Below, in pieces: positions 3,451-61,933 of a stretch of DNA of 64,000 bases. Numbering within the stretch: position 1 is the stretch's first letter; each line of letters opens with the position of its first letter. Both the position numbers and the translations under genes were made by a program. The notes below the pieces were generated by a model. The model was not told the DNA's origin and did not search any database. It saw only the letters and a list, made by a program, of their open reading frames with translations. The DNA comes from an uncultured Verrucomicrobiae bacterium (GTDB taxonomy: Bacteria > Verrucomicrobiota > Verrucomicrobiia > Limisphaerales > UBA11358): contig CAVQPQ010000008.1 of NCBI GenBank assembly GCA_963714695.1, forward strand, positions 180,656-244,655, given 5' to 3'.

Positions 3451-3465
3451 ACCCGATTGGCCGCG

Positions 3466-4400: not shown

Positions 4401-4483
4401 CGCCGCTCACCAGCACCCAGCTTCCGCCCGGGGAATCCAGTCATCACACTAAGTAAACCCTTTTCAACCCAAATATGTCCTTG

Positions 4484-4560
4484 AACAGGAGCAAACAGAG
4501 GTAACGGAGAGCAGGCTCGGTCCGCAATCCTTTCCCCTCTGTTTCCTCCGCGTCCTCCTG
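4484..4560. repeat. decamer-repeat hairpin element (solo)
   Basis: Left arm AACAGGAGCAAACAGAGGTAACGGAGAGCAGG and right arm CCTTTCCCCTCTGTTTCCTCCGCGTCCTCCTG. Units of type nAACnGAGGn face their complements. Confidence 0.55.
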
Positions 4561-4608
4561 TAAGATGCCTTCGGAATTCTGGTTGAACGACAACCGGGAG
4601 CAACGCCT

Positions 4609-17105: not shown

Positions 17106-17114
17106 GTGCTTGCT

Positions 17115-18179
17115 ATGAACGAAGAACATGAATTCAAACTTGAAAATGACTCCGTGCAATCTCTGGGGGGTAAAGCGCGGGCGGAAAAGCTTTCCAAACG
17201 GGACAGGGTTGAAATTGCACGAGCGGGGGCAGAGGCAAGGTGGGCAAAGCATCCAGATCGGCCACGATTGCCAAAAGCCACCCATGCCGCGCCATTGAGG
17301 ATTGGAGAGGCTACAATTGATTGCGCTGTCTTGGAGGATGGAACACGGGTTATCAGCCAAAGCAGCTTCTTGCGGGCGATAGGACGCTCTACAAGGCCAG
17401 CGGCGGGGCAAGGAAGCACTACATTGAACCGCGCCGTCGAAGAGAGCGTTGGCATCGAAGAAATGCCTCCTTTTCTGCCTTCAAAGAATCTTAAACCGTT
17501 TATCAGCAATGACTTAATGTTGTCGAAGAATCCAATTGCATATAAACCCCTGGCGGGGGGGCGAATTGCCTTTGGCTACAAGGCTGAAATTCTCCCAATG
17601 GTCTGTTACGCCTATATTGATGCGAGCAAGGCGGGAGTAATCCTAAAAACGCAAGCCCATGTTGTGCGGGCGGCGGAAACAATTATTCGCGGTTTGGCAA
17701 CCGTTGGTATCATCGCCCTGATTGACGAAGCCACTGGTTATCAAAAGGTGCGTGATCGTCTGGCTTTGCAAAAAATCCTCGATGCTTATCTGCGAAAGGA
17801 ATTGGCAGCCTGGGCAAAAAGATTCCCAAATGAGTTTTACGAAGAAATGTTTCGATTGCGAAATTGGCAGTGGAACGGAATGTCAGTCAAACGCCCCGGA
17901 TTTGTCGGGAAACTGACAAATGATCTGGTTTATGAGCGGCTTGCGCCGGCACTGTTGGATGAACTTGAACGTAAAAACCCGGTGTTGGAAACAGGACACA
18001 GAAAATCACGTCATCATCAATGGTTGTCTGATGACATTGGAATTCCTGCATTGGCACAACACATTCACGCCGCCATTGCGCTGATGCGGGCGTCTGACAC
18101 CTGGTCAACCTTTTACGGGATGATTAACCGCGCCCTGCCGAAGAAACGAGGCCAGTTGCCGCTTTTGATTGAAGCCTAA
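17115..18179 (+). CDS. phage-type P63C-domain-like protein
   Basis: ORF 17106..18179. N-terminal GGKARAEKLSKRDRVEIARAGAEARWAK. Then PLRIGEATIDCAVLEDGTRVISQ and LIDEATGYQKVR...FPNEFYEEMFRLRNW...KRPGFVGKLTNDLVYERL. From memory this matches phage P63C-domain proteins. AT-richer than the flanking chromosome. Confidence 0.6.
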   Translation: MNEEHEFKLENDSVQSLGGKARAEKLSKRDRVEIARAGAEARWAKHPDRPRLPKATHAAPLRIGEATIDCAVLEDGTRVISQSSFLRAIGRSTRPAAGQGSTTLNRAVEESVGIEEMPPFLPSKNLKPFISNDLMLSKNPIAYKPLAGGRIAFGYKAEILPMVCYAYIDASKAGVILKTQAHVVRAAETIIRGLATVGIIALIDEATGYQKVRDRLALQKILDAYLRKELAAWAKRFPNEFYEEMFRLRNWQWNGMSVKRPGFVGKLTNDLVYERLAPALLDELERKNPVLETGHRKSRHHQWLSDDIGIPALAQHIHAAIALMRASDTWSTFYGMINRALPKKRGQLPLLIEA

Positions 18180-18200
18180 AGATTTTAGCATACAATCTCT

Positions 18201-19130
18201 TTATGGGCGAGCTGCCACATGGCCATTATTTTTATTCAGTAAAAGCACTGTGTGACTAATGATTTCCACTTTGGTGTAAGGACAACCATTATTAGTAACT
18301 TCAACGAAAAGTTCATTTACAAATGGTGTGTTTTCAAATACGTGGTTTTTAAATTTAATTGGGTCAATGTCTTTAATTCCATGTTTCGCCATACAGCTAT
18401 CCAATGCATTTTTCATTACACGTTTGTGATCAAAGCGTGTTTTCAAATAAGCGCGGGTACGGCGATGGCATATATTTTCAGCCACCCCATAGGTTTCCAG
18501 CCACCAATTATAGTACTTTTGAACGGTTTCCGTTGCTTGTTGGCTGATGAAATCCGCCTCGTTTTTAAAACATTCTGCCTCGTGTTCAAACGTAGCAATT
18601 GAAGCCTCAATTTGATATGTCGGGCAAAGCAGTTCATCTTCTTGATCGGGAGATGGTAATTGAATGGGACAAGAGACATCCCCTGTGGTTATGTCGAAAT
18701 TTTTTGCATATTGGTCTGCATATAATAACTCGTGTGCAATTGCTTCCGTTCGTGGCGCAATTGATTTCAACCATTCCGTTTTATTTTGATGGGGTGCCAA
18801 TGGTCGAAACCGGTCTCGATTAACACAAATATAGAACGCAAGTACCGGGTATTCACGAAAGCTGCCGTCCTTTTGCGAAACTTTTTTATTTTCCCCTTTT
18901 CTCCACCTATTAAAAAAGATCGTCGTCTTGGAACTGTGATTTGGAAAATAATCTTGGAAACTATATTCCAAAATTATCGGCTGAAAGTAAAACCCCCGCC
19001 CCCACGAACAATGCAGTTGCGTCATTATCATGCGATAACAACTTTTCCCTTCAAATTCCCGTTTTAGATCCTCCCCCAAAGGATTAGGGCAACATTGAAG
19101 CAATACTAAATGTGGGTCAAATTCCCTCAT
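18201..19130 (-). CDS. hypothetical protein (orphan, AT-rich islet)
   Basis: 309-codon ORF with clearly AT-rich codon usage. Cys/His/Trp-rich. No recognisable family. Confidence 0.55.
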   Translation of the reverse strand: MREFDPHLVLLQCCPNPLGEDLKREFEGKSCYRMIMTQLHCSWGRGFYFQPIILEYSFQDYFPNHSSKTTIFFNRWRKGENKKVSQKDGSFREYPVLAFYICVNRDRFRPLAPHQNKTEWLKSIAPRTEAIAHELLYADQYAKNFDITTGDVSCPIQLPSPDQEDELLCPTYQIEASIATFEHEAECFKNEADFISQQATETVQKYYNWWLETYGVAENICHRRTRAYLKTRFDHKRVMKNALDSCMAKHGIKDIDPIKFKNHVFENTPFVNELFVEVTNNGCPYTKVEIISHTVLLLNKNNGHVAARP

Positions 19131-45778: not shown

Positions 45779-47071
45779 ATGAAAGTCATCCGCCATACCG
45801 ATGCGAACTTTGCCGCCAAACTGCACGAGCTGTCCGCACCGTCCAGCCTGTTCGATCCCGTCATCGAACAACGCACCCGCGCCATCCTCGATGCCGTTCA
45901 AGCCCGCGGCGACGCCGCGCTGCTGGAATTCACCGAAAAATTCGACGGCGCAAAACTCGCCGCCGGCCGGCTGGCCATCACGCAGGCGGAATTGTTCAAC
46001 GCCTCGCTGGCCGCCGACGAATCGCTCCGCGCCGCCGTGGCCGAAGCGGAGAAAAACATCGTTGCGTTCGCCAAAAAGTCGCTGCTCAAAAACTGGCAGA
46101 TGAAAAATTCGCATGGCGCGATCGTCGGCGAGAAATTTGATCCGTTCCGGCGCGTGGGAGTTTACATCCCCGGCGGCCAGGCGCCGCTGGTTTCGACGGC
46201 GCTGATGACGGCCGCGCTGGCGAAGGCGGCCGGCTGCCCGGAAATCGTCGCTTGCACTCCCTGCGGTCGGGACGGCTCCATCAATCCGGCGCTGTTGTTC
46301 GCAACGCGGGCGGCCGGGGCCACGGAAATTTACCGCGTCGGCGGCGCGCAGGCCATCGCGGCCATGGCTTACGGCACCAAGACGATCCGCCGCGTGCAAA
46401 AAATCTTTGGTCCGGGCAACGCCTATGTCAGCACGGCCAAACGACTGCTTTTTGGCCACGTTACCATTGATTTGCTGGCCGGTCCGAGCGAGCTGCTCGT
46501 GCTTGCGGACGAAACGGCGAACCCGAAATTCGCCGCCGCTGATTTGCTGGCGCAGGCCGAACACGGCTCCGGCCACGAGCGCGTCTGGCTCGTGACGACT
46601 TCGGGAAAAATCATCAAGGCCGTCCAAGGTGAAATTGCGAAACAACTGCCCAGGCAAGCGCGCCGTGAGCTCATCCGGCGCGTGTTGGATGAAAACACCT
46701 GGCTGATTCAAGTGGCGACGCTGGCCGACGCAGTGGTGCTGGCAAACCGGCTCGCGCCGGAGCATTGCGAAGTGATGACGCGTAATCCGCGCAAGCTCTC
46801 GGAAAAGATTCTGACCGCCGGAGCCATTTTCCTCGGTCCGTGGTCGCCAACGGTGCTGGGCGATTACGTGGCCGGGCCGAGCCACACGCTGCCAACCGGC
46901 GGCGCGGGCGCGTCGTTTGCCGGCCTGACCGTGGACCAGTTCCAGCGCCGCACCAGCGTCGTCGAATACACCCGCGCCTCGCTCAAGAGAGCGCTGCCCG
47001 CCGTGAAAAAATTCGCGGAACTCGAAGGCTTGGGTGCGCATGGAAAAAGCGCGGAGATACGACCCTCGTAA
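45779..47071 (+). CDS. hisD: histidinol dehydrogenase
   Basis: 430 aa. Conserved GPGNAYV, AGPSE, LAQAEHG and HTLPTGG motifs. Confidence 0.92.
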   Translation: MKVIRHTDANFAAKLHELSAPSSLFDPVIEQRTRAILDAVQARGDAALLEFTEKFDGAKLAAGRLAITQAELFNASLAADESLRAAVAEAEKNIVAFAKKSLLKNWQMKNSHGAIVGEKFDPFRRVGVYIPGGQAPLVSTALMTAALAKAAGCPEIVACTPCGRDGSINPALLFATRAAGATEIYRVGGAQAIAAMAYGTKTIRRVQKIFGPGNAYVSTAKRLLFGHVTIDLLAGPSELLVLADETANPKFAAADLLAQAEHGSGHERVWLVTTSGKIIKAVQGEIAKQLPRQARRELIRRVLDENTWLIQVATLADAVVLANRLAPEHCEVMTRNPRKLSEKILTAGAIFLGPWSPTVLGDYVAGPSHTLPTGGAGASFAGLTVDQFQRRTSVVEYTRASLKRALPAVKKFAELEGLGAHGKSAEIRPS

Positions 47072-47487
47072 ATCGTCAGCACGATGGCAGCGCGTTGTTT
47101 GGCCGGCAGCTTCATTAAGGCGGCCTGCACCTCCCCGCCAGGCCCATCGGCGCCGGGTTCGGATTGAGAAACGGTGTTTGATTCGGCCCATTGGGTGTGG
47201 ATTTGATCGCGGCGCATCTCCCGCTGCCGCCAGTTCAAGCAGGTGTTGACCGCAATCCGATAAAGCCACGAGGAGAACTTTGCCGTGCCCTGGTAGGAAT
47301 CCAGTTGCCGGTAAGCGCGGATGAAAGTTTCCTGGGCCAGATCTTCGGCATCGGCCAGCGAACCCGTCATCCGGAATGTCAGCGAATGGATCATGCGTTG
47401 ATGGGCGCGTATCAGTAATTCAAAAGCCGCAGGATTGCCATCCCGGCTTTGCAACACCCAGTTTTTTTCCTCATCCGTGTCGCTCAT
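47060..47487 (-). pseudogene. ECF sigma factor lacking the region 4.2 helix-turn-helix (truncated)
   Basis: Regions 2 (DLAQETFIRAYRQLDSY...FSSWLYRIAVNTCLNW) and 4.1 (LPAKQRAAIVLTIYEG) are present. The ORF then runs antisense into the hisD 3-prime end (46864-47071), with no sigma-like sequence in any frame. Confidence 0.6.
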
Positions 47488-47778: not shown

Positions 47779-49239
47779 TCAAGGCGACTGCGGCACGGCG
47801 TTGATTTCGATGTGGTTGGTGTCGGCAATCACCGCCGTTCCCGCGATGCGCGAATTCGACCACGGCATTTGATTCTGATTCGTGAGCGCTGATTGCATCT
47901 GGTTGCCGCCACCGCCACCACCTCCCAAACCGCCACTGCCACTTGATGACTGCTGCAAATTTGTCATCGCGTTGGCCATCGCCACCAAATTTCCGGCGAA
48001 CACCACGTTTTGCTGGAGGGTTCGGTTAGTTCCAGTCACCCGGAAGAAATAATTTTGAGCCGTTTGCAATTCCTCCCGGCTGGCGATTGTTTTTGCCCGT
48101 TCAACTTGCGCCGGCACGGCGGCTGGCGGAGCGGTCGTTGCCGCCGGCGCTGGCTCGTTTTGCGCAACCGCGCTTTCCGGCAGCAACGAACCGTCATAGA
48201 CCGAGCCGTCCGCATCCACGACGCGGACCGCGCTGCCATTTTGTTGCACCTGAAAATTCACCAACACGGGAACGGCTTGGGCCGGCGTGATGGTATTCTT
48301 AAAGGCATTTTGCAAACCCATGGCGAAATTGTGCGAAGCGGCGGATGCGAATTGAATCCCACTCGTTTGCGCCGTGGCCAACCGGTCCATTGTCGCCGTG
48401 GGAGCAGCAGGAGCGGCGGGGGCATTCGCCGCCAGTTCACCAGCGCCTGGTGCGGCAATTGCCAAATCGCCAAGTTTCAATTCCTTCCGATTGTTTTCGG
48501 CCTTTGGCTGCCCTGAAATTGGAGGCGAGGCGGCGGCGATTCCGCTCGCGGCGGAGATTTCCTTCGGGGTCTCTGCAAGTTGCCGGCGGGCGGAATCTTT
48601 TGCGAAGGCAAGCTCCTGCACTTCGCGGTTCGTCAGTTCGGAAAAGCGGGCGCCATTAATGACTTCAACGCGACCGTCAGCGAACAGAACCGTGCGCCCC
48701 TTTTTGTCCGTGGGCGAATACGCCAGCATGGAATTGCTCGGCAAATTACCCAGATACTTTCCACCGCCAACGTAAACGAATCGCCGCCCGTTTTGCGGAT
48801 CGATAAAAATCGTGCTGGCCAGATCGAGTTGCAATTCGTTCGTCAGTTCGTCGAGGGAAGCTGGCAGGCGCTCCTGGTTGTCTTCAGCAAACATCCGTAA
48901 AGCGGTGCCGATTTCGATGAGATGTGATTTGGTCATGGCCGTGGTCTTTTGCGCCTTGTTTTTTGCCGCGCCCAAACCCGGCAACAACAGCGTTGCGACG
49001 AAGAAAACCATCAGCGCAAAACCCAGCAGCACCGCCCACTGCTGGCGGAACAATTCCCAAAGCGACAGGGAGGCGTCTTCGTCATCCGGCTTGGGCGCGT
49101 TGCGGGCGATTTCGCCCTGCAACAGGCGCCGCGTCGCCGGATGCAGCTCCAGCGGATCGCCGGCCTGGGCACGGCGTTTTTTCGCGTAAGCCCGCAGCCG
49201 TTTTTCGATGTTGCGTTCCGGTTCCATTCTTTCAGTCAT
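47779..49239 (-). CDS. anti-sigma-like single-pass membrane protein with a pseudopilin-like ectodomain
   Basis: ORF 47779..49419 trimmed to the ATG at 49239 (ATGA overlap with the sigma-factor stop). Cytoplasmic N-terminus with LELHPATRRLLQGEIAR, one TM, then LLLPGLGAAKNKAQ...VLFADGRVE. Confidence 0.65.
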   Translation of the reverse strand: MTERMEPERNIEKRLRAYAKKRRAQAGDPLELHPATRRLLQGEIARNAPKPDDEDASLSLWELFRQQWAVLLGFALMVFFVATLLLPGLGAAKNKAQKTTAMTKSHLIEIGTALRMFAEDNQERLPASLDELTNELQLDLASTIFIDPQNGRRFVYVGGGKYLGNLPSNSMLAYSPTDKKGRTVLFADGRVEVINGARFSELTNREVQELAFAKDSARRQLAETPKEISAASGIAAASPPISGQPKAENNRKELKLGDLAIAAPGAGELAANAPAAPAAPTATMDRLATAQTSGIQFASAASHNFAMGLQNAFKNTITPAQAVPVLVNFQVQQNGSAVRVVDADGSVYDGSLLPESAVAQNEPAPAATTAPPAAVPAQVERAKTIASREELQTAQNYFFRVTGTNRTLQQNVVFAGNLVAMANAMTNLQQSSSGSGGLGGGGGGGNQMQSALTNQNQMPWSNSRIAGTAVIADTNHIEINAVPQSP

Positions 49240-49856
49240 CCATTGGACGGGAAAACGTCCGGTTTTTCCCGCAGAAAAATTTTGCGGGCAATTTCCTCCA
49301 GCCGGTCCAGGCATTTGCTCAGGCGCGAACTGACGGTCTTGGGATTCAGCTTCAACGTCGCGCTTAATTCCTCGTAGCTCAAGTCGCCAAAATAGCGCAG
49401 CTCGACGATTTCGCGGCACGGCTCTCCGAGCTGGTCGAGCGATGCGCGCACCACCGCCATCTGCTCGGCGTTCATCAAATGTTCATCCGGCGCGGGCAAA
49501 GGGTCCGGCGGATCGGGCGTCAGTCCGGTTTCCGGGTTTTCCGCCTGAAGCGAAATCGTTGTTTGTCCGCCGCCGCGTTTGGCCGCGATTCGTTTCTCGC
49601 GGTAATCGCGCGCCTTGTTCGCGGCGATGCGGAAAAGCCACGTCTGGAACCGGCTTTCGCCCTGAAAGGCATCGAGGTTTTTGATGACGGACAGAAAAAC
49701 TTCCTGGCAAATCTCCTCGCTGTCTTCGCGGGAAAAATCCGGCGCGAGCTGGAAAACAAACCGCCCCGCCGCCGCGTAATGCAGATCGAAGAGTTCGTCC
49801 CACGCTTCGGCTTCGCCGCGACGGCAACGCGCCAGCAATTCGGCTTCGGGGGCCAT
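49236..49856 (-). CDS. ECF-type RNA polymerase sigma factor
   Basis: Region 2 (EICQEVFLSVIKNLDAFQGESRFQTWLFRIAANKARDY) and region 4 (EIVELRYFGDLSYEELSATLKLNPKTVSSRLSKCLDRL). Confidence 0.88.
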   Translation of the reverse strand: MAPEAELLARCRRGEAEAWDELFDLHYAAAGRFVFQLAPDFSREDSEEICQEVFLSVIKNLDAFQGESRFQTWLFRIAANKARDYREKRIAAKRGGGQTTISLQAENPETGLTPDPPDPLPAPDEHLMNAEQMAVVRASLDQLGEPCREIVELRYFGDLSYEELSATLKLNPKTVSSRLSKCLDRLEEIARKIFLREKPDVFPSNG

Positions 49857-49906
49857 GCGTTTGGACTCTATTTGAAACCGCGCTCTTTGAACAGATTTTC
49901 CGCGCG

Positions 49907-49974
49907 TTGGAGTTCAAGCTTCAGCTTGTTCAAACGGCCTTGTTTATCGGAACAAGCTGAAGCTTGAACTCCAA
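49907..49974. promoter_or_regulatory. perfect 25-bp inverted repeat with an 18-nt loop in the divergent control region
   Basis: TTGGAGTTCAAGCTTCAGCTTGTTC (49907-49931) and GAACAAGCTGAAGCTTGAACTCCAA (49950-49974). The arms are themselves built of TTCAAGC/TTCAGCT heptad-like units. Confidence 0.85.
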
Positions 49975-50022
49975 CCCGGAAATGTACGGGAGCATTTTGC
50001 GCGGCCTTCCGTCTGACTGGGC

Positions 50023-53000
50023 ATGAAAAGAACCGCAATCGTATTATTGGCCATCTCGCTATTCAATTCAGCCGCGCCGGGCAAGCCGGTTTCCCCGCCG
50101 GCCAATGACCTCGCCATCCGCGCAATCCATTACAACGGCAAACTCGCGGACGACGAGGCACGGTTCACGCTGGATATCGCCGCCGAAGCCACCGGCGCGG
50201 GCGAAAGTTCGGCAAAATTATTGGAGGGCGACGTTGCCATCCTGCCCGGAAACCTGCCCGACCAGTTGAAGATTATCCGCGAAAGCAACCGCTACCTGCT
50301 CGTCGCGTCGCATCCGGGACAGTTCAAATTCAAACTGGAGGTCGTCGCCAAAATCCAGCACGCCGAACCGTGGAACCAGATTTCATTCACAGGCCCGGCG
50401 GCGACGATTGCCTCCGTCACCGCGCAGGCAGCCGGCGCGGACACGGAAGTCCAGTTGCTCAATGGCACGTTGCTCGACGCCATCAAAACCAACGGCATCT
50501 CTCGCTTGATGGGATTTCTCGGCGCGGACCAGACGGTTGCGTTGCGCTGGCAAAGCCGGGTTACCAAGATTGCGCACAAATCCCTGCTCACGGCGGATTC
50601 CGCCATCGCCGCGCAAATCACGCCGACCGTCATTAAATACACCAGCAAGTTTCATTACGAAATCGTCCAGGGCAACGCCGCACAGCTCACGCTCGCGCTG
50701 CCCGCGTCGCAATCGCTCACGCGGCTGGAAGGCGAACAGATTCGCGACTGGCACACGACGGTGGAAAGCGACCGCCAGACGCTGACCATTGAATTCATCA
50801 AGCCGGTGGAAAATGCCTGCGACCTCACGCTGTATTCCGAACAGACCGTGGATGGCGCTGCGGAAAAAATTTCGCTGAACCCGCCGCAGCCGTTGAACGT
50901 CGAGCGCGAATCCGGTTCGCTCACCATCTCCGCCGAGGACACGCTGGTTGAAACTGCCGCGCTGGCCGGGCTGCGACAGGTCAATGCGACGGGCAATGCG
51001 CTGGCGTCGTATCAATTCAACGCCCGGCTGTTCACGCTCGCGCTCAAACTCAAACCCATCGAACCGGTCATCGGCGTCACCGACCGCGTCAGCACGCGGC
51101 TCGAAGAAACGCGGCTGGTGATTTCGCACCGCCTCGCGCTGAACATTGAGAAGGCTGGCATTTACACGCTGGAACTGGCGCCCCAACCCGGATTCGCCAT
51201 CGCGGACGTGCGCGGCGAGGGCGTGGACGACTGGAATTTCAGCAACGGAAAAATTCTCGTGGATTTTTCCGCGCGCCTGCTCGGTTCGCGGCGGCTGGAC
51301 GTGCAGTTGGAACAAGCCCTCAAGAATTTTCCCGAACAAATCAGCATTGGGCCGTTGCGCGTGTCCGGCGCGGTTAGGGAAACGGCGCAAATCGGCGCGG
51401 CCTCCGCGCCCGGCATCCGCCTGCACACCGCGGCACTCTCCGGCCTGCGCGAAATTCCAGTGCGAACGCTTCAGAGTGGGACGGGCTTCCAGCCTGTCTC
51501 CTACTCAAATCAAAATGAAACAGGCTGGAAGCCTGTTCCACTCTCCGACGAAATTCTCGCCTACACCACCGAGCAGCCGGATTGGAAACTGTTCGTCGCC
51601 AGCGAACGCCTCGCCGCGCGTGTCGTGGCCGATGTATTCAACCTCGTGACCATCGGCGACGGCCTGGTCGGTGGCAGCGCGACGATCCGTTACGGTCTCG
51701 TCAATCAGGGCGTGCAGGAATTCAAGGTCCGGGTTCCGGCGAATTACAAAAACGTCGAATTCACCGGCCCGAACATCCGGCGCAAAGAATTGAGTCGAGG
51801 GTCGAAGGTCGAGAGTCGAGAGCCGGGCAACGCCCTCGACACTCGACACTCGACACTCGACACGAATTACGACGTTTGGACCATTGGTCTCCAGAGACAA
51901 GGTCTGGGGCGGCTATACGCTCGTTGTCACCTACGATTTTCAATTTGATGCCAAGGGCGCAACGCTGCCCATCGGCGGTGTTCATGCGGTTGACGTGGAG
52001 CGCGAGACCGGCTCGGTCGCCATCACGACCGCCGCGAGCTTGCAGCTCAGTGCAAAATCCGCGAGCGACACGCTGCGGCGCGTGGACGAGTCCGAGTTGT
52101 CCGCCACCGACCGCTCGCTCATCGCGCGCGCCGTCGTGCTGGCGTATCAATACACCGGCGACCAGTACGATTTGTCCGTGGACGTGAAACGATACGCGGA
52201 GGAACGCGTGCTCGAAGCCGTCGCCGACCGCACGCAAATCACGTCCGTCCTTACCGAAGGCGGCGAAATGCTCACGCAGGCGTCGTTCATGGTGAAGAAC
52301 AACGAGAAACAATTTCAACGCTTCCAACTGCCGACCGATGCGAAACTCTGGGGCTGCTACGTCAACGGCCAGCCCGCCAAGCCGGAACGCGACGGTGACT
52401 GGGTGCTGGTCTCGCTCCCGCGCGACGTGAACCGCAACCAGACATTTGCCGTGGACATCATGTATGCCCAGACGAACGGCGCGCTCGCGTCCACGTGGTC
52501 GAAAACGCTCGACCTCAAAGCCCCCCGCACCGACGTGCCCAACACTTATGCGGAATGGCAAATCTTCGTGCCGCCCACGCTGCGGCTTTCCGATTTTGGC
52601 GGCAGCATGAAGGTGACGCAGGGCACTACTTACGAATTGTTCGACGCCTGGGAAAAATTCCTCACCTTCTACGGGCAGGTTTTGCATGAAGCCGGCGGGG
52701 CGATTCTGGTCATCGGCTTTCTGGCGTTTCTCGTCATCGCCCTGGTGGTATCGGCGGCGCGGCGCGGCTGGAGCGGCGTTCTCACTCTGCTCGCGGTCAT
52801 GGCCATTCTCTTCGTGCTGGGCGCGATGCTGCTGCCGGCGCTCGCCAGCGCCAAACGCAAGGCGCAACGCACCAGTTCGGTCAACAATCTCAAGCAGATC
52901 GGCGTTGCGGTGCGGCTTTTTGCCGGCGACAACGGCGACCGACTGCCGCTTTCGTTTGAAGAAATGAAAAACGAACTGGGCACGGACAAAATCACCTACG

Positions 53001-56000
53001 ACACCGAAACCGGACTGCGTTACACCTATCTCGGTGGTGGAATGCCGATGGACAGCCTCAAGCCGGAATCCGTGCTCGCCTACAGCCCGATTGTCAACGG
53101 CCACTGCGAAGTGCTCTTCGCCGACGGCAGCGTGGAGCAGATGACCGACGGAAAATTCGCAGAACTTTCCCAGCGCGGCCTGGTGCAATTGGCCACGCCA
53201 CAGGAAATCGCTGTGCAGCAGCAGCGGGCGGCCATTGCGAGCAGCCAGTTTGCCAATCAACCAAACGCCGCGCCGGCAGCTCCACTGACGGGTGAATTTG
53301 CCATCAACGGCACGGCAGGTACGCACGGTCTTGGTGAATCTGGCAGTGGTGGTGGCAGCGTCGCTGTCGCCGGAATTCCTGCCGCGCCGTCCGTTGTCCC
53401 GGCGCCCACCGCCGCCGGCATCCGTTCCATCCGCATCGAACTGCCGCAGACCGGCCAGCCGTTCATGTTCACCAAAGTGCTCAATGTCCGTGACGAGCCG
53501 CTTTCGATTCGGGCGCGCATCATGCCGCTGCACACTTTTCAAACCATTCAAATGGCGTGGCAGAGCGTGGCATTTGTGCTCGGGCTCATCATCTGGTGGT
53601 GGCAATGGCGGCGCGCCCAGCGCAACACTTTCATTCTCACTGCCGCGCTGGCGTTAATCCTCGGCTCGGTGTGCAGCCTGCTCATTCAGTGGCGCGCGCT
53701 GCATGACGCGCTCATTGTCAGCTTCCCGTCCGTGACTGTCGCCGTCATCGCCTGGCTCGTTTGGAAATATTGGCCGCGTGGAAGCAAGCCGGCGACCGAA
53801 TCGCCTACGCCAGCGATGGGAATCCCGCCGGTCATGGCCTCAATCGCCCTGCTGTTCGCGTTGAGTTTGTCCACAGCGACCGCCGCAAATACCGAAATCG
53901 GCAATCGGCAATCAGCAATCGGCAATGTCTCGATTGTTTCCGCCAGCTATTCCGGCCCGGTGAATGACCATGTGGCTTCAATTGATGCGACGCTGCAATT
54001 TTCCGCCGTCAGCCCCGGCCAGATTGTCCCGCTGTTCGGCGATGATGTGGTCGTTCAGCACTTCACGGCCAAAACCGGGCGCGCCGAGCTCGTCCGCGAC
54101 GGCGGTAACATCGCCGTGCGGTTCGACAGTCGCGGCAACGTGACGCTGCAAATCAAAATGCTGGTCAAAATCACCGGCGACGTGACGAAACGCCGGCTCG
54201 CGTTTGCGATACCGCCGGCGTTGTCGAGCCAGGTGGCGCTCGCACTTGACGAATCCGAGGCGGACGTGGATTTTTCGGCGGCGATTTCGTTCCGGCGGAT
54301 TTTGGACCAGGACAAGACGCGCGTGGAAGCCGTGATGGGTTCGGCCGATCATGTCGAATTGCTCTGGACGCCGCGGGTGAAACGCGCCGCTGAAGTGGCG
54401 GCCACGGTGTTTTGCCAGAACGCGGCGCTCGTCACGTTCGGCGGCGGCGTGGTGAACGTGCGCGCGACGATGGATTATCAAATCACGCAGGGCGAGCTGC
54501 GCCAGGCGCGGGTGCGGTTGCCCGCTGGACAAAAATTGCTGCGCGTCGAAGGAAAGGAAATCCGTACCTGGGAGGTAATGCCTGGGAGCGCCGCTGTCTC
54601 AGCGGCGAGTTCTTCGGGAAAAACATCGCAACCCGCCGGGGGGACGCCGGCGCTCCCAGGAGAGCAGATTCTCGTCGTGGATTTGCTGAAAGGAATTCCG
54701 CTCAACTGGCGGCTGACGATTGAAACGGAAAAAGTTTTGGATGTGCTGCCGGCGGACATGGTGGTCGAAACGCCGCATGCGCTCGACGTGAAACGCGAAA
54801 ATGGCCTGGTCGCCCTGCGCGGAGCGGAGGAACTGGCCTTGTCGGTTGGGTCCGCGTCCGGCCTGGAGCGCGTGGACGCGGAGGAATACGGGCGCACGGT
54901 CGCGGACCAGACCGGCAATCTCTCCAGCGTGTTCCGGTTTTCCAATCCCGAATTTACGCTGCGTATCCGCGCCGGGTCCATCCAGCCGGAAATCGAAGCC
55001 GTCGTGCGGAACAATTTCCGCGTGAGCGCCGAGCAGGTGTCGCTTTCGGCAATGGTTGATTACACGATCAAACGCGCGGGCGTGTTTACGCTGAAGGTTG
55101 CGCTGCCCGGCGGTTATCACGTCGAGCGCGTAAGCGGAAATAACATTTTGCAGCAGGCTGAACACAGCGATGGGAATGCGCGCCTTCTCGAAGTGACGCT
55201 GAAAGAGCGCACGAGCGGCGCCTACACTTTGACCATTGAACTGACGCGCGATTTCAAGGAATTGCCGAAGTCGCTCGACATTGCCGGCGTGCATCCGCTC
55301 GACACGGCGAAGCTCACGGGCTTTGTCGCCGTTTCCGCCGAGCCGGGGGTAGCGGTGAAAACCGAATCTTTCGACGGCCTCACGGAAATACCGGCGGTGT
55401 CGCTGCCGGATTACGCAACGGTGGCCGGAACGGGCAGCGTGCTGGCTTACAAATTCATTTCCTCCGCGCCGAAGTCCGCACCGGAATGGAAATTGAGCGT
55501 GGCGACTGAAAATGTCGCCGCCTGGGTGCGCGCGGAAATTGTCAACACGTTCACACTTACCGAAACGCTGGTGAGCGGGCGCGCGCTGGTGCGTTACGAC
55601 ATCGCCAACGCGCCGGTGAAGGAGTTGCGCGTGCGCGTCCCGGCGGAATTCAAGAATGTCGAGATCACCGGCGCGAACATCCGCAGCCGCAACCAGTCGG
55701 GCGATGTCTGGCGCATGGAATTACAGAACCCGACGCGCGGATTTTACACCCTGACCATAACGTGGGACGAGCCGCGCGCGGAAAAAACCCGCGCGCTGGA
55801 ACTCACGGGAATTTCCGCCGATGGCGTGGAGCGCGAAACCGGCCTGCTGGCGATCTCGGCCAAGGCGCCGTTGCAGGTGAGCGAATCAGGCGCGGTGGAT
55901 TTGCAGCGCGTGGACGCGGGTGATTTTCCCGATTGGGGGGAAAGCCCGGACAACGCGATGGCGCTCGCGTATCGCTACGTGCGGCCGGGATACCAGCTCA

Positions 56001-57088
56001 CGCTTGACGTGCGGCGGTTTGACGAGGCGGAAGTGTTGCAGGCGCTGGTGGACAGCGCACGATTCACCAGCGTGGTGGCCGACGACGGCCAGATGATGAC
56101 CGAGATGTCGCTCTCCGTGCGCAACAACGGCCGGCAGTTTCTCGAAATCGCCCTGCCCGCCGGCGCGCGCGTCTGGTCGGCTTTCGTCGCGGACCAGCCG
56201 GTGCGGCCCAGCATACGCGACGGCAAATTGCTGTTACCCATCGAATCGTCCGGCGCGGACGACGGCGCGATATCGGTGGAATTGACCTACGTCGGCACGA
56301 ATTCGTTTCCGCGCGACCGGGGAAGCCTCGGCTTCGCTTCGCCGAAATTTGACGTGCCGTTGAAGAACGCGCGCTGGGACGTTTATCTGCCGCCGGATTA
56401 CGACTATCAAAATTTTTCCGGCACGATGACACGCGAAACCGCGTCCGCGCCGGAAACCTGGTCGTCGAGTTTTTCGAGTCTCGATTATTCGCTCATGGAG
56501 CAGGCCAAGAAGGCGTCGGCCAAGGTCGAGGTTGACCGGGACGTGAGCGAGGCGCGGCGGCAGCTCGCCGGCGGCAACATGCGCGAGGCCAGCGCCACCT
56601 TCAACCGCGCCAAGACCCGACTTTACGCCGACAAAAAGGAGGACGGCGACGTGCAACAGCTCGAAAAGGATTTGCAGACCGCGCAGGCGAGCAATCTCAT
56701 CAACGCGCAAAATGATTTCGTTACCCGGAACGCGGGCGAAATCGCAGCGGATGGAAAATTTCCCGCCTCGCAAGTCCAGCCGTCCGGCGGGCCAAATGAC
56801 AACGCCGCCGCCGGACAGCAATGGATGAAATTGCAGCAGGCGCAGGAAATTGTAACCGCCAAGGTGCAGCCGCTGCGCGTGAATTTGCCGGTGCGCGGCC
56901 TGCATTTTGCCTTCACCCAGGTCCTGCAAACCGAAAGCGGCCGGCCGATGACAATCCAGCTCTTCACCGCCAGCACCAAGGCCGTGAGCTGGCCGATGCG
57001 CGGTCTGACTGCGATCGGCGCATTTTTGATGCTGTGGGCATTGGTCGCCATTTTATCCCGCCTGACGTTGCGCGCCAATCGGGCATGA
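50023..57088 (+). CDS. giant internally duplicated envelope protein (ORFs 50023..51948 + 51884..57088, joined across a 1-nt frameshift near 51901)
   Basis: Signal peptide MKRTAIVLLAISLFNSAAPG. Module A (~900 aa) and module B (~960 aa) align along their length, e.g. VRVPANYKNVEFTGPNIR / VRVPAEFKNVEITGANIR and VDVERETGSVAITTAASLQLS / DGVERETGLLAISAKAPLQVS. TM segments and a pseudopilin-like linker lie between the modules. No family name recognised. Confidence 0.65.
51484..51533. repeat. perfect 14-bp inverted repeat inside module A coding sequence
   Basis: GGCTTCCAGCCTGT (51484-51497) and ACAGGCTGGAAGCC (51520-51533). Encodes GFQPVSYSNQNETGWKPV, which is absent from the aligned position in module B. 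Confidence 0.85.
51792..51863. repeat. hairpin of tandem heptamers inside coding sequence
   Basis: (GTCGAGN)x4 arm 51792-51822, 12-nt loop, (CTCGACA)x4 arm 51835-51863. Encodes SRGSKVESREPGNALDTRHSTLDT, absent from module B. Confidence 0.85.
53896..53926. repeat. tandem heptamer AATCGGC x4 inside coding sequence
   Basis: AATCGGC AATCGGC AATCAGC AATCGGC. Encodes EIGNRQSAIGN directly after the internal signal-peptide-like segment. Confidence 0.85.
54581..54660. repeat. perfect 13-bp inverted repeat (nested hairpin) inside module B coding sequence
   Basis: CCTGGGAGCGCCG (54581-54593) and CGGCGCTCCCAGG (54648-54660), with inner hairpin GCCGCTGTCTCAGCGGC. Encodes PGSAAVSAASSSGKTSQPAGGTPALPG, absent from module A. 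Confidence 0.85.
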
Positions 57089-57200
57089 ACGCTGGTTTGA
57101 TTTTATTCGCGGCGGAGCGGGCAGCTTGTTACGTTGCGCGGGCATGAAAAGACGCGGAAACTTTTTTATGTCCGCGTTGTTTTAAATTCCAAAACCAGCC

Positions 57201-58142
57201 ATGATACCGACTCCTCTTGAAGCCGCGCGGGAAACCTGCCGGAAAATCGCGGACAACATCGCCAAAATCATGCACGGCCAGGCCGGCCCGACGCGCGAGC
57301 TGCTCGCCAGCGGCGGCCATGTGTTGCTGGATGATTATCCCGGCACGGGCAAGACGACGCTGGCCAAGGCGCTCGCCCGCTCGATTGAGGCGCAGTTCAA
57401 GCGCATCCAGTTCACGCCCGATTTGCTGCCGTCGGACATCCTCGGCGTGTCGGTGTTCAGCCAGCGTGACCAGCAGTTCCATTTTCACGAAGGCCCGGTG
57501 TTCACCAACATTTTGCTCGCCGACGAAATCAACCGCGCCTCGCCGCGCACGCAATCGGCGCTGCTCGAAGCGATGGGCGAGGCGCAGGTGAGCGTCGAGG
57601 GCGAACGGCGGAATCTTTCGGAATTGTTTTTTGTCATCGCCACGCAAAACCCCGTCGAGTTTCGCGGCACGTATCCGCTGCCCGAGGCGCAGATGGACCG
57701 GTTTGCCATGCAATTCACACTCGGCTACGTCCAGCCCGAGGAGGAAGTGGCCATCCTCACGGCGCAGCAACACAACCATCCGCTCGACGAATTGAAGCCC
57801 GTCGCCACGCTCGCGGACGTGATCGCGCTCAAGCATGCGGTGGAAGATGTGCGCATCAGCGATGAATTGAAACGGTACGCCGTTGACCTGGCGGCGGCGA
57901 CACGCACGGCGGGCGGCGTCCAACTGGGCGCCAGTCCGCGCGCATCCATCGCACTGATGAAAACCGCGCAGGCGCTGGCCTTGTTTGACGGCGCGGATTT
58001 TGTCACGCCGGAACAGATTCAGTCGCTCGCCGTGCCGGTCATCGCCCACCGGCTGGTGCTGGAGCCGCAGGCGCGTTTTTCGGGCGTGACGGCGCGCGGC
58101 GTGGTCGAGGAAGCCGTCAAAAAATTGCGCGTGCCGGCGTGA
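57201..58142 (+). CDS. MoxR-family AAA+ ATPase
   Basis: Walker A DDYPGTGKTTLAKALA, Walker B ILLADEINRASP, and the characteristic C-terminal lid (RASIALMKTAQALALFDGADFVTPEQI). Confidence 0.9.
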   Translation: MIPTPLEAARETCRKIADNIAKIMHGQAGPTRELLASGGHVLLDDYPGTGKTTLAKALARSIEAQFKRIQFTPDLLPSDILGVSVFSQRDQQFHFHEGPVFTNILLADEINRASPRTQSALLEAMGEAQVSVEGERRNLSELFFVIATQNPVEFRGTYPLPEAQMDRFAMQFTLGYVQPEEEVAILTAQQHNHPLDELKPVATLADVIALKHAVEDVRISDELKRYAVDLAAATRTAGGVQLGASPRASIALMKTAQALALFDGADFVTPEQIQSLAVPVIAHRLVLEPQARFSGVTARGVVEEAVKKLRVPA

Positions 58143-58159
58143 CAGAAAAGGCGGAAAGC

Positions 58160-58447
58160 AGAATGAAGAACGAAGAAACAAAATTCTGCAAAGCGTCGAA
58201 GGCAAGATCTGTTTTGATTCCTCGACTTGTTCAACGGAATAAGTGTTTACGCCCGCCCTCACCTTTTATCCTCTCCCCCAGGAGAGGAAATCGCTTTCGC
58301 TGGTTTCTGGTTTTGCGGATGTGCGTCCGGCCAATCCCGTCGTGTAAATTTTCAAAGAAGCGGCGAACGATTCTCCCTCTCCCGGGGGTGAGGGCCGGGG
58401 GGAGGACGGATGTCATCCTTCCATCCCTGTTTTTTCAATCTTCATTC
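58160..58447. repeat. nested palindromic intergenic element between the MoxR and DUF58 genes
   Basis: Outer arms GAATGAAGAACGAAGAAACA (58161-58180) and TGTTTTTTCAATCTTCATTC (58428-58447), 17/20 complementary. Inner arms CCCGCCCTCACC (58252-58263) and GGTGAGGGCCGG (58387-58398). Local 8-bp hairpin TCCTCTCC-CCCA-GGAGAGGA (58269-58288). Confidence 0.75.
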
Positions 58448-58452
58448 ACCTC

Positions 58453-59796
58453 GTGACCCTGATCTACCAGCTGATTTACTGGATTTACCGCGTCACGAGC
58501 GGCCTGTGGTACTGGTCGCGCCGGCGGTTCACGCTGGCGGGCCTGTGCGTGGCCGGGAGCTTCATCGTCGCCGGCGCGGTGGGCGTGGACGTTGAGAATA
58601 CCGTCACCTATCAATCGTTCTCGCTGTTGCTGGCGTTTCTGCTGCTGGCCCTGGCAGGCAGCCTTTTCTTCCGCGCCACCTTTTCCGCAACGCGCATATT
58701 GCCGCGCATCGGCACGGCCGGACAGCCGCTGCACTATCGCGTGCAGGTGAAAAATCTGACGGCGAAAAACCAGACGGGCCTGACCCTGCTGGAAGAACTC
58801 GCCGACCCGCGTCCGGCGTTTCAGGAATGGCTGGCATTTCAACTGGCTGAAAGCAAACGCGTTCGCCCCTTCCGCGTGACGCAACGACGGCGGGAGAGTC
58901 CGTTCCGCCGGGTGAAGGTGAAGGAGGCGGAGGTTCCGCCGCTGCCGGCCCACGGCAGGGCCGAAGCGCGCGTGGAAATGCTTCCGCTGCGCCGGGGAAT
59001 CCTGCGGTTCACCGGCATGACGCTGGCGCGGCCCGATCCGCTGGGATTGTTCCGCTCGTTCAGCCGGGTGGCCGCGCCGCAGACGGTTTTGATTTTGCCG
59101 AAGCGTTATCCTCTTCCGCCCATCGCGCTGCCGGGGGCGATGCGTTATCAGGAAGGCGGCGTGGCGCTCGCGGCGAACGTCGGACGCAGCGAGGAGTTCG
59201 TCGCGCTGCGCGATTATCGTCACGGGGATCCGTTGCGGCACATCCACTGGCGGAGCTGGGCGAAGACCGGCAAACCGATCGTGAAGGAATTCGAGGACGA
59301 ATTTTTTGTGCGGCACGCGCTAGTACTGGACACGTTCGACGACGAACCGAACAGCGAGGTTTTAGAGGAAGCCGTGTCCATCGCGGCGTCGTTCGCCTGC
59401 ACGGTGCTGACGCAGGAATCGCTGCTGGACCTGCTGTTCGTCGGCAACCGGTCCTACTGCTTCACCGCCGGCCGCGGACTGGCGGAGGCGGACCAGATGC
59501 TGGAAATTCTGGCTTCGGTGCGGAACTGCGCCGACAAGACATTTGAGACGCTCGAACATCTCGTGCTCAATCACATTGCCGTCGTGAGCGGCTGCATTTG
59601 CGTGCTGCAACGCTGGGACGGGGCGCGACAGGAGTTTGTGAAAAAATTGCGCGTTCTCGACATTCCGCTGCTCGTGCTGGTCGTGGTGCGTCCGGAGGAA
59701 AAGAAACCGGACGCCGGGCAATTGCGCGACGAGCCGGGAACTTTCCACGTCCTCGAAATCGGCCGTATCGAGGAAGAACTGTCGAAACTCAAGTGA
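58453..59796 (+). CDS. DUF58-family protein (vWA-like fold, MoxR partner)
   Basis: Two N-terminal TM segments. The DUF58 signature ALRDYRHGDPLRHIHWRSWAKTGKPIVKEFEDE. Confidence 0.85.
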   Translation: MTLIYQLIYWIYRVTSGLWYWSRRRFTLAGLCVAGSFIVAGAVGVDVENTVTYQSFSLLLAFLLLALAGSLFFRATFSATRILPRIGTAGQPLHYRVQVKNLTAKNQTGLTLLEELADPRPAFQEWLAFQLAESKRVRPFRVTQRRRESPFRRVKVKEAEVPPLPAHGRAEARVEMLPLRRGILRFTGMTLARPDPLGLFRSFSRVAAPQTVLILPKRYPLPPIALPGAMRYQEGGVALAANVGRSEEFVALRDYRHGDPLRHIHWRSWAKTGKPIVKEFEDEFFVRHALVLDTFDDEPNSEVLEEAVSIAASFACTVLTQESLLDLLFVGNRSYCFTAGRGLAEADQMLEILASVRNCADKTFETLEHLVLNHIAVVSGCICVLQRWDGARQEFVKKLRVLDIPLLVLVVVRPEEKKPDAGQLRDEPGTFHVLEIGRIEEELSKLK

Positions 59797-59812
59797 AGAC
59801 GGAACCCCATTT

Positions 59813-61933
59813 ATGAAACCGCCGCCCTTTCTACTTTTGGCCGCGCTGCTTTTCTGGGGCTGGCAATCGGGGCTGCTGCTTTACGGCGCCATCATGGGCC
59901 TGGTGCTGGAAAGCTCGCGGTTCATCAAGGCGCGCTGGGATTTGACCGGGGAGGATTTTCGCCGCCTCTGGAATTTTAGCACGCTGCTGGCGCTGACGCT
60001 GGTGGTCTATGTTTTCACCACGAACGAGGAGGGCGGCGGATTGAACAGCCTGCTTCATGTTTCAGCCGTCGTGGCCGCGCGCAACGCCGGCGTTTCCGCC
60101 ACCACGTTTTTGCGCTGGCTGCCGATGACGATGTTCCTGTTTGTCGCGGCGCAGAGGTTTAGCGAACGCGGATCCGTTCCGTTGTCGGCGATTTCATTGT
60201 TAATGCGCCTGCGCCGGAAAGGGGGCTCCGAAGCGGAACGAAATGTGGACGTCTCGTATGCGTATTTCATCGTGTGTTTGTTTTCCGCTGGCATCCACAC
60301 CAATGCCGGGACCCACTCTTATTTTTGGGGACAAGCGGTTCTGATCGCATGGGCGTTGTGGCCGCTGCGTTCGCGGCGCTTCGGCCTCATCGTCTGGGTT
60401 GGCGCGCTGGCGGCGGCGATCGGGCTGGGCTTTTCCGGCCAGCACGGCATCGGCGAGTTGCAGCGGGCGCTCGAAGGTTACAACGCGCAGTGGATGATGA
60501 ATTTGATGCGGCAGCGGACAGACGCCTCCCAAGCCATGACGGCCATCGGCCGGATCGGAAAATTAAAATTGTCCGCGCGGATCGTCATCCGGCTCGAACC
60601 CAAAGGCGGCAGCACGCCGCCGGTTTACCTGCGCGAGGCCAGTTACCGCGGTTACCATCCGCAGAGACGAACGTGGCAGATGGGCGGCTCGCAGAACAAT
60701 TTCGCCAACCTGGTGCACGATGCGGGCGATGGCTCTTCCTGGACGCTGCTGCCCGGCAAAACCAACACATCGGTCGTCAATATCGCGTCTTACCTTGAAG
60801 GCCGCTCGCAGGATACGGGCGACCCGGAAGGACTGCTTCCACTGCCAACCGGCAGCAGCCGTCTGGAAAATCTTCCGGTGTTCCCGCTGAAAATGAACAA
60901 AACCGGCGCGGTCCTGGCCGATGGTCTGGGTCTGGTGATTTTCGATGCGCACTACGGACCCGGCGCGACGTTTGATTCGCCGCCGGATGCCGGCACGAAC
61001 CATCTGGATTTGACCGTGCCAGCCGACGAAGTTCCGGCGCTGGACCAAATCATTTCTGAAATGAAAATATCCGGCGCGACTGAAGAACGGAAGCGTGTCG
61101 CCGTCCAGCAATTTTTCGCGGCCAATTTCATTTACAGCACCTGGCTGGGACCGGACAAGGTGGCGCGCACCAACGAGACGGCGCTGTCACGTTTTCTTTT
61201 GCACAGCCGCAGCGGCCATTGCGAATACTTTGCCACGGCGACGGTATTGCTGCTCCGCGAACTCGGAATTCCCGCGCGTTACGCCGTGGGTTATGCCGTT
61301 CACGAACCCGCCGGTCACGGCTACGTCGTGCGCGAACATGACGCCCATGCGTGGTGTCTCGTTTGGAATGAGGCGAAGCAAATGTGGGAGGACTTCGACA
61401 CCACGCCGGCATCCTGGGTCGCGAAGGACACCAAAAGCGCATCGGCCTTGCAGTGGTTTTCGGATTTCTGGTCGTGGGTCAGATTTCAAATCGCGAAATT
61501 CCGCTGGGGACAGGCCAATTTGCGTCAATATATCCTCTGGGCGCTGATCCCCGTGCTGGCGTTGCTGCTGTATCAAATCATCTTCCGGCACGGACGCAGA
61601 CGCCGGCCACAAGCCAAAACCGGAAAATCCGCCAGCGCGATTTTCTGGCCGGGGCTGGACTCCGAATTCTACCTGCTTGAACGCAAACTGGCCGCGCGCG
61701 GCGTGCCGCGCCAGCCCAGCGAACCGCTTTCCGGCTGGCTGGCGCGCGCGCTGGCCAACCCGGGCCTGGCCGATTTGCGGCAGCCGTTGCAGGAATTGTT
61801 GCGGCTGCATTACTGCCATCGTTTTGACCCGCGCGGCTTAAGCGGCGAGGAGCGGGAGACGCTGACCCGGGAAGCAAAAATCTGTCTGGACATGCTGTCA
61901 CGGGTGGAGCAACACTCCGCAAGCCCGGCTTGA
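59813..61933 (+). CDS. transglutaminase-domain membrane protein (TgpA-like)
   Basis: N-terminal polytopic domain. Transglutaminase core RSGHCEYFATATVLLLRELGIPARYAVGY...HAWCLVW...WEDFDTTP (Cys-His-Asp). Then a TM segment and a C-terminal DUF4129-like tail. Confidence 0.85.
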   Translation: MKPPPFLLLAALLFWGWQSGLLLYGAIMGLVLESSRFIKARWDLTGEDFRRLWNFSTLLALTLVVYVFTTNEEGGGLNSLLHVSAVVAARNAGVSATTFLRWLPMTMFLFVAAQRFSERGSVPLSAISLLMRLRRKGGSEAERNVDVSYAYFIVCLFSAGIHTNAGTHSYFWGQAVLIAWALWPLRSRRFGLIVWVGALAAAIGLGFSGQHGIGELQRALEGYNAQWMMNLMRQRTDASQAMTAIGRIGKLKLSARIVIRLEPKGGSTPPVYLREASYRGYHPQRRTWQMGGSQNNFANLVHDAGDGSSWTLLPGKTNTSVVNIASYLEGRSQDTGDPEGLLPLPTGSSRLENLPVFPLKMNKTGAVLADGLGLVIFDAHYGPGATFDSPPDAGTNHLDLTVPADEVPALDQIISEMKISGATEERKRVAVQQFFAANFIYSTWLGPDKVARTNETALSRFLLHSRSGHCEYFATATVLLLRELGIPARYAVGYAVHEPAGHGYVVREHDAHAWCLVWNEAKQMWEDFDTTPASWVAKDTKSASALQWFSDFWSWVRFQIAKFRWGQANLRQYILWALIPVLALLLYQIIFRHGRRRRPQAKTGKSASAIFWPGLDSEFYLLERKLAARGVPRQPSEPLSGWLARALANPGLADLRQPLQELLRLHYCHRFDPRGLSGEERETLTREAKICLDMLSRVEQHSASPA

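Follow-up and report, generated by a model that had tools for sequence, protein, structure and literature searches.

The window analysed here is a 64-kb (64,000-nucleotide) stretch of the genome of a diderm soil Verrucomicrobium. It carries at positions 47779-61933 six genes organised as two conserved units. Unit A comprises the gene of an extracytoplasmic function (ECF) sigma factor, the gene of its putative anti-sigma factor and, on the opposite strand, the gene of a giant envelope protein. Unit B is a triad of genes coding for a MoxR ATPase, a DUF58 protein and a TgpA-like transglutaminase. We favour, with a probability of about 0.55, the interpretation that the two modules form a facultative supra-operon, maintained as neighbours in this lineage. 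An earlier interpretation made from the letters of the window (hereafter the sequence-only reading) had delimited the locus at 49236-61933 and proposed a single six-gene envelope unit. The gene content that it described was recovered in full, the anti-sigma gene (47779-49239, minus strand) falling outside that range. The idea of one unit held only in part: adjacency of the two modules exceeds background synteny, but a giant gene lies upstream of only 14 from the 70 close orthologues of the triad investigated here.

Homologues of the giant gene were searched with a 6-sequence alignment as query, a 14-sequence alignment (down to 20% identity) being too diverse. Keeping one genome per species gave 80 loci, all from Verrucomicrobiota, of which 51 have enough flanking sequence on both sides. 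Sigma pair, giant and triad are found in the order of the window in 11 of these 51 loci, while in two others (L012 and L014) the sigma pair is present and the triad is adjacent but inverted. Ten loci have the sigma pair without the triad, in one more the triad is present and the sigma pair is shifted by 5 kb, and neither is found near the giant gene in the 27 remaining ones. A cultured relative, labelled Pedosphaera parvula Ellin514 (L077, 52% identical), is sigma-linked and lacks an adjacent triad. A divergent sigma/anti-sigma pair is present in 23 of the 51 loci and the triad stands beside the giant gene in 13 of those 23. The neighbourhood comparison that the sequence-only reading had called for gave a divided answer, as the triad is absent nearby in the other 10. 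In the tree of giant proteins the sigma-linked loci are a crown group, inside which triad-positive and triad-negative species interleave. This distribution fits an ancestral cluster that would have repeatedly lost the adjacency of its modules.

In the opposite direction, metagenomes were scanned with MoxR as the starting point, which gave 80 loci whose MoxR proteins are 83-97% identical; 70 of them extend at least 600 nt upstream, and these supply the count of 14 given above. DUF58 and transglutaminase genes follow MoxR in nearly all of the 80 loci, where the flank is sufficient, and the triad is an autonomous unit. Triads with and without an adjacent giant gene interleave in the tree of MoxR and DUF58. 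The spacer between giant and triad is constant, at ~115 nt. As a synteny control the genes further out were compared: those past the anti-sigma gene recur in two loci out of 29 at the most, those past the transglutaminase gene in none of 13. The giant-triad adjacency exceeds background synteny because these outer flanking genes are nearly never shared. The junction has outlasted neutrally evolving gene order by a wide margin without being obligatory.

The giant gene (50023-57088, plus strand) is preceded at 49988-50017 by an ECF-type promoter (GGGAGCATTT-N12-CCGTCTGAC) with a -35 element GGAGC, a 16-nt spacer and a -10 element CGTCT. Its consensus over the loci is GGGAGYATTT-N12-CCGTCTGAC. The motif is the sole match in the 64-kb window. 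Among sigma-linked loci, 31 of 36 have it upstream of the giant gene, and so do 18 of the 44 giant loci that lack an adjacent sigma gene; five other matches occur in 1.9 Mb. As this promoter ends 6 nt before the ATG, a leaderless or near-leaderless giant mRNA is implied in the window. Relatives L008, L062, L065, L011, L059, L003, L006 and L013 have a leader of 170-250 nt between the ECF promoter and the giant start, in which a conserved box (GACAATTCTTTTACAAA..TTAC..CTGACA) is accompanied by a short open reading frame (ORF) starting where the giant ATG of the window sits (50014-50025). This leader is absent in the window and in L001, L014, L056 and L039, where the giant mRNA would be leaderless. 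Target promoters of ECF sigma factors have a GGAAC-like -35 element, a 16-17-nt spacer and a CGT-like -10 element, and one usually also precedes the gene of the sigma factor itself. In front of the sigma gene, alignment of ~30 loci revealed a promoter-like element (49864-49898, minus strand; CTGTTCAAAC-N9-TTGAAATARAGTC in the sigma orientation) that ends ~8-13 nt before the sigma ATG and is unlike the motif of the giant gene. A likeness of the sigma upstream region to the triad promoter, apparent in the window, was not upheld across loci. The same intergenic region holds an inserted palindrome resembling a miniature inverted-repeat transposable element (MITE) with 26-bp perfect arms (49906-49975), which is missing in relatives whose intergenic regions are 82-145 nt long.

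Two of the five stray ECF motifs precede the gene of an exported protein of ~800 aa that resembles VIT+vWA proteins by inspection of the sequence and is encoded beside deep-branching giant homologues (L030:16809-19300 and L046:18458-20800; homologues in L031, L038, L042 and L068). In L030 and L046 a GGAGY-N16-CGTC sequence is found 9-10 nt before the ATG of this gene, which suggests a common ECF regulon with a vWA protein among its members. No homologue of it is present in the window.

The giant gene lies upstream of, and co-directional with, the MoxR gene, as the sequence-only reading had it; the gap measures 112 nt instead of the 113 nt given there. No terminator-like site was found in this spacer, which is occupied by a conserved regulatory region of the triad (57096-57187, plus strand). 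It consists of a distal box at 57096-57142 (TTTGATTTTGTTCGYGG...CTTGTTA) and of a proximal bipartite motif at 57156-57187 (GGAAAC-N16-TGTTTYAAT) whose end lies 13 nt ahead of the MoxR ATG. Of the giant-adjacent loci, 14 of 16 have the distal box and 18 of 25 the proximal motif; for the 63 non-adjacent loci the counts are 31 and 30, respectively. Shuffled sequences give 2% for the distal box and 0.6% for the proximal motif. The window sequence had hinted at a conserved hairpin or attenuator in front of MoxR, an idea that was dropped since RNAalifold on 44 loci gave no consensus pairs; the region is taken to be a bipartite motif in the DNA. The control by the ECF pair that had been proposed for the whole locus is supported by the ECF-type promoter at the giant start, whereas the triad possesses this conserved promoter-like region of its own.

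Two rearranged loci bear directly on the relation between the ECF promoter and the triad. In L021 duplicated repeats of ~940 nt (L021:16800-17740) part the giant gene from MoxR and are followed by a second ECF-type promoter, with an ATG at equal offset, 185 nt before MoxR. The chance of a stray ECF motif at 200 nt or less from MoxR in ~16 loci is ~0.004 (5 stray matches per 3.8 Mb of strand). In the metagenome contig L110 (positions 1-6179) the sigma gene and ECF promoter directly face the MoxR-DUF58-transglutaminase genes; the giant gene is deleted, apart from an apparent short 3' remnant. Such an arrangement speaks against an obligate six-gene envelope system under the ECF pair, in which MoxR and DUF58 would remodel the giant protein, the transglutaminase would cross-link or cleave it and no part would work alone. 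Strict interdependence would agree with the order and fixed spacer kept in ~14 species and ~15 metagenome contigs, with the ECF promoter evidence and with the analogous PFNA cluster of Bifidobacterium (PMC8430577). But the giant is lost from L110 while its triad stays behind the ECF promoter; triads also have a promoter-like motif of their own, and in most loci no giant accompanies them. In 10 of 23 species sigma pair and giant have no adjacent triad, and in 27 further species neither is near the giant. We consider an obligate system very unlikely.

The PFNA cluster is organised as pkb2-fn3-aaa-atp-duf58-tgm (PMC8430577, PMC6803598, PMC10688814). Its FN3 protein is 1994 aa long and carries a signal peptide as well as a transmembrane anchor (PMC8430577, PMC10688814); the cluster was shown to be an operon in B. 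longum GT15, and its MoxR protein was proposed to be a chaperone of the FN3 protein (PMC8430577, PMC10688814). In both loci a transmembrane signalling device adjoins the gene of a beta-sandwich protein of ~2000 aa with signal peptide and transmembrane anchor, and this gene is followed by co-directional genes for MoxR, DUF58 and a membrane transglutaminase. The locus described here is therefore not an arrangement without precedent, as the sequence-only reading had supposed: the PFNA cluster has equal logic (PMC8430577). The two loci also differ. The PFNA device is a Ser/Thr kinase (Pkb2), whereas the window has a divergently transcribed ECF sigma/anti-sigma pair and no kinase in the locus. The giant protein has no Pfam FN3 domain; it carries instead an internal duplicate, a pseudopilin-like anchor and several transmembrane helices. 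A domain of the sensor has a paralogue in the big protein, and the host is a diderm soil Verrucomicrobium. The likeness between the PFNA big protein and the giant is one of layout and gene order. What is new relative to PFNA is the ECF switch in place of a kinase, a different, duplicated giant and a sensor paralogous to its target.

The triad has a second counterpart in Pseudomonas aeruginosa, where PA2875, PA2874 and tgpA are co-transcribed (PMC3507681). Among TgpA-like enzymes, transglutaminase activity is known only for TgpA, whose periplasmic domain shows it in vitro, and TgpA is critical for viability (PMC3507681). That operon likewise codes for MoxR, DUF58 and a polytopic transglutaminase whose catalytic domain is periplasmic, the triad being one unit; the transglutaminase domains of the two loci are homologous (structure 6g49). 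But unlike in the window neither a giant protein nor an ECF pair was reported beside it (PMC3507681).

Several observations weigh against the facultative supra-operon or against parts of it. No triad is found within 10 kb of 10 from the 23 sigma-linked giant genes, nor of any of the 27 deeper homologues, and 56 of the 70 close triad orthologues have other genes upstream, which are diverse and mostly housekeeping. The triad may not need the ECF promoter, as it has its own promoter-like motif. The motif upstream of the sigma gene differs from that of the giant, so that the usual ECF autoregulation is not seen and the giant motif is assigned to this sigma factor by adjacency. No anti-sigma domain was recognised in the anti-sigma protein by Pfam, NCBIfam or PDB searches. 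No transcript contig spans the giant-MoxR junction (56836-57170) in four wetland and bioreactor metatranscriptomes, where both genes are covered only from related organisms. Finally, the giant protein is no more than a candidate substrate of the transglutaminase. The modules could thus be mere neighbours, two unrelated units whose adjacency would be an unbroken ancestral accident while the triad serves a general envelope function as TgpA does. This explanation, which we regard as possible though rather doubtful, would account for a triad that is a self-contained and widely distributed operon (PMC3507681), for a promoter-like region conserved in all its contexts, for the 80% of close triad orthologues found away from any giant, for an adjacency lost many times on the trees and for deep giant homologues that never have a triad nearby. 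An accident is harder to reconcile with a constant-spacer adjacency in 13 of 23 species when background synteny is about nil (at most 2/29 and 0/13), with its survival of an inversion in L012 and L014, with the second ECF-type promoter before MoxR in L021, and with the independent recurrence of equal gene logic in Actinobacteria (PFNA). On these grounds the facultative supra-operon is preferred, and selection probably keeps the units together in this lineage for co-expression.

The giant protein is described in the numbering of its intact homologue P0001. The sequence-only reading had announced a single exported protein of ~2350 aa; this is right for its natural form of 2354 aa, but in the window the gene is split into two ORFs (50023-51948, 641 aa, and 51884-57088, 1734 aa) by one extra base at 51894-51895. 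The base is missing from all contigs of four independent public soil and peat metagenome runs, and its deletion restores a protein of 2354 aa that differs from the database protein P0001 by 2 residues. The frameshift is private to this assembly, being an error or a rare variant, and the natural giant protein is intact because the four independent metagenomes lack the extra base. Programmed frameshifting was rejected for the same reason. Two repeats lie in frame within the gene and are present in the near-identical P0001 too. The first (51469-51550) is a hairpin-type repeat inside module 1 that encodes ...TGFQPVSYSNQNETGWKPVPL... and has sub-threshold Rfam hairpin matches on both strands. The second (51793-51867), built of GTCGAGnGTCGAG units, is a dispersed repeat that is multicopy in metagenomes, where contigs break and depth jumps at both of its ends. 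Together with 49906-49975 and 58243-58410 they make four hairpin-type (MITE-like) insertions across the locus, for which Rfam gave sub-threshold hairpin matches only.

Hydropathy of the giant protein shows a signal peptide (aa 1-20), a transmembrane hairpin (893-937), a transmembrane bundle with a relic signal peptide (~1178-1288) and a C-terminal anchor. Along the plus strand of the window, beta-sandwich module 1 (50083-52678) is followed by the transmembrane hairpin and a pseudopilin-like domain (52700-53233), a linker, tail and transmembrane bundle (53234-53887), beta-sandwich module 2 (53888-56563) and a coiled coil, tail and C-terminal transmembrane anchor (56564-57085). The duplication noticed in the sequence-only reading was confirmed, the two big extracytoplasmic modules being paralogues (25% identity over ~560 aa, E=1e-49), as was its remark that the protein has no named domains: Pfam and NCBIfam scans gave no family above threshold, FN3 included. 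The AlphaFold2 model of module 2 is an all-beta string of ~8 sandwich domains (mean predicted local distance difference test score, pLDDT, 79.5). Foldseek matched it to the luminal domains of ribophorin I/Ost1, to integrin alpha legs and to the inter-alpha-inhibitor heavy chain (ITIH1), with E-values down to 3e-8 and low TM-scores. These matches are, at the level of the predicted model, generic tandem beta-sandwich ectodomains. The family comprises 4739 clusters at 50% identity (E<=1e-3), nearly all of ~2100-2600 aa and with both modules; the duplication is old because nearly all clusters hold the two.

The central domain resembles the pseudopilins of type II secretion systems and the DUF1559 proteins of Planctomycetes and Verrucomicrobia in having a hydrophobic helix, an LPAL..AK.KAQ sequence and a small alpha/beta domain ending ...VLFADGSV. 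Unlike them, it occurs as an internal part of larger proteins, either midway along the 2354-aa giant or joined to the N-terminus of an anti-sigma factor. It matches the PDB GspG entry 5wda with E=8e-4, and stays below the cut-offs of GspG TIGR01710 (19.6 vs 88.85 bits), of SBP_bac_10 (21.5 vs 23.3) and of the DUF1559 H-X9-DG model (E=0.12). AlphaFold2 predicts a long helix and a small sheet with pLDDT >90; Foldseek found nothing below E=0.5 for this model. The prepilin cleavage/methylation motif (G/FTLIE, PF07963) was looked for with no N_methyl match, and the helix is internal. Each half of the giant protein has a tail before its transmembrane anchor, at P0001 aa 1137-1175 (IELPQTGQPF..FTKVLN) and 2283-2325 (VNLPVRG..FAFTQVLQ), corresponding to window positions ~53435-53550 and ~56870-57000; these tails are paralogous. 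The LPQTG string of the first is like a sortase motif and lacks the canonical context of a sorting signal.

The first gene of the triad (57201-58142, plus strand) codes for a cytoplasmic AAA+ ATPase of the MoxR family (AAA_3, E=1.8e-63; AAA_lid_2, E=1.9e-23), with GTGKT as Walker A and LLADE as Walker B sequences. By its AAA_3 and AAA lid domains and by the DUF58 gene adjoining it in the window and in relatives, it falls within the MRP subfamily. The DUF58 protein (58453-59796, plus strand; 447 aa) has two N-terminal transmembrane helices and matches PF01882 with 34.6 bits (cut-off 23.4). The gap between the two genes is widened to 310 nt by the inserted hairpin-rich repeat at 58243-58410, which has a sub-threshold Rfam match; in relatives these genes overlap or are ~100 nt apart. 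A spike in RNA-contig depth was observed at 58243-58300. The third gene (59813-61933, plus strand) codes for a TgpA-like polytopic transglutaminase of 706 aa that combines Transglut_core (PF01841, 59 bits; aa 422-529) with a C-terminal, cytoplasmic DUF4129 (34.6 bits). The Cys-His-Asp residues are found in GHCEYFA, DAHAW and EDFD. Transmembrane helices are located before residue 208 and at 573-591, and from this hydropathy profile the catalytic domain is inferred to face the periplasm. The enzyme is a homologue (E=7.5e-12) of 6g49, a protein-glutamine gamma-glutamyltransferase domain of solved structure. DUF3488 gave no Pfam match at E<=0.01 in its N-terminal membrane part, where transmembrane helices are present. 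PADLOC returned no defence-system match for the locus past generic AAA+ similarity. The Bat (aerotolerance) operon, MoxR-DUF58-BatA/BatB(vWA)-BatC-BatD, has vWA proteins (BatA, BatB) and a TPR protein encoded downstream of DUF58. It was discarded as a model: here DUF58 is followed by the transglutaminase gene, and no vWA, TPR or BatD match was found in the giant or in the flanking ORFs.

The sigma factor (49236-49856, minus strand; 206 aa) belongs to ECF group 4. Its Sigma70_r2, r4_2 and Sigma70_ECF matches are above the Pfam cut-offs and it scores 104 bits against TIGR02937 (cut-off 42.9), in agreement with the ECF sigma gene that had been read opposite the giant gene. Sequence identity with its orthologues is 76-92%, and in 30 of 65 species loci the sigma gene is transcribed divergently from the giant gene. 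The putative anti-sigma factor (486 aa) is kept beside the sigma factor in ~40 loci, and its start overlaps the sigma stop codon as ATGA. Hydropathy indicates a cytoplasmic N-terminus of ~60 aa and one transmembrane helix (aa 68-86), beyond which come a pseudopilin-like periplasmic domain and a C-terminal domain of unknown fold. The cytoplasmic N-terminus and the C-terminal domain have no match in Pfam, NCBIfam or PDB; an anti-sigma role is inferred from position, coupling with the sigma gene and topology. The reported paralogy between the sensor and part of the giant protein was verified, anti-sigma aa 125-280 being 40% identical to aa 293-446 of the second giant ORF (E=3e-29). It is limited to the transmembrane helix and the pseudopilin-like domain; a profile-profile comparison with hhalign aligned anti-sigma aa 62-215 with giant aa 910-1061 (E=1.6e-36). 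A related design is known from the Sigma-I/RsgI systems of Clostridium thermocellum, in which the extracytoplasmic sensor domain of the anti-sigma factor is paralogous to a domain of the sigma-controlled proteins. They differ from the present pair in sigma family, in domain type (carbohydrate-binding modules) and in envelope, and are not known to involve a triad.

Close to the anti-sigma gene, a second ECF sigma gene (46864-47487, minus strand) abuts the convergent hisD gene (45779-47071, plus strand). Its region 2 is intact while homology in region 4 ends at residue 142, exactly at the end of hisD, and it is probably a pseudogene truncated by a rearrangement. Elsewhere in the window a low-G+C patch (17106-19130; ~0.40 vs ~0.58 in the rest) contains a P63C-domain gene (17106-18179) and an unassigned ORF of 309 aa, and probably represents a small mobile or phage-derived island.

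The supra-operon that we favour would function as follows. The ECF sigma/anti-sigma switch would act on one target, the giant gene. Several inner-membrane helices would anchor the giant protein and expose its two arrays of ~8 beta-sandwich domains to the periplasm or envelope, with a degenerate pseudopilin-like (DUF1559-type) domain and its own membrane helix between the arrays. By its paralogous helix and domain, the anti-sigma factor would most likely sense a partner of the giant protein or the giant protein itself, and release of the sigma factor would be tied to the state or amount of giant protein. Freed sigma factor would then read the GGAGC-N16-CGTCT motif observed at the giant start. 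The triad would probably also receive read-through from the ECF promoter, because the 112-nt spacer has no recognisable terminator. Cytoplasmic MoxR and membrane-tethered DUF58 may control the polytopic enzyme, whose predicted transglutaminase/cysteine-protease-fold domain would lie in the periplasm. Chaperone and cross-linker roles for the triad proteins, put forward in the sequence-only reading, stay putative. Given the co-retention of both units, the giant would be the best candidate client of the triad; its position and the analogy with PFNA make it the likeliest lineage-specific one, to be cross-linked, trimmed or anchored. A bolder scenario, which we consider improbable, would make the triad an ATP-gated machine dedicated to maturing or cross-linking giant membrane-anchored beta-sandwich surface proteins in Actinobacteria and Verrucomicrobia. 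The anti-sigma factor would then use a decoy copy of the client's pseudopilin-like anchor domain to monitor correct assembly and feed back on the ECF promoter of the client.

The locus offers a concrete candidate client for the MoxR-DUF58-transglutaminase triad, in the form of a giant protein whose gene is kept adjacent amid scrambled synteny, the triad of one genome having a matching promoter. With PFNA, two phyla show this gene logic. A further outcome is the definition of an unnamed protein family that is very large (thousands of clusters), its members being ~2300 aa long with two beta-sandwich arrays and a predicted dedicated ECF promoter. An anti-sigma sensor paralogous to a domain of its own target is an unusual and testable sensing design.

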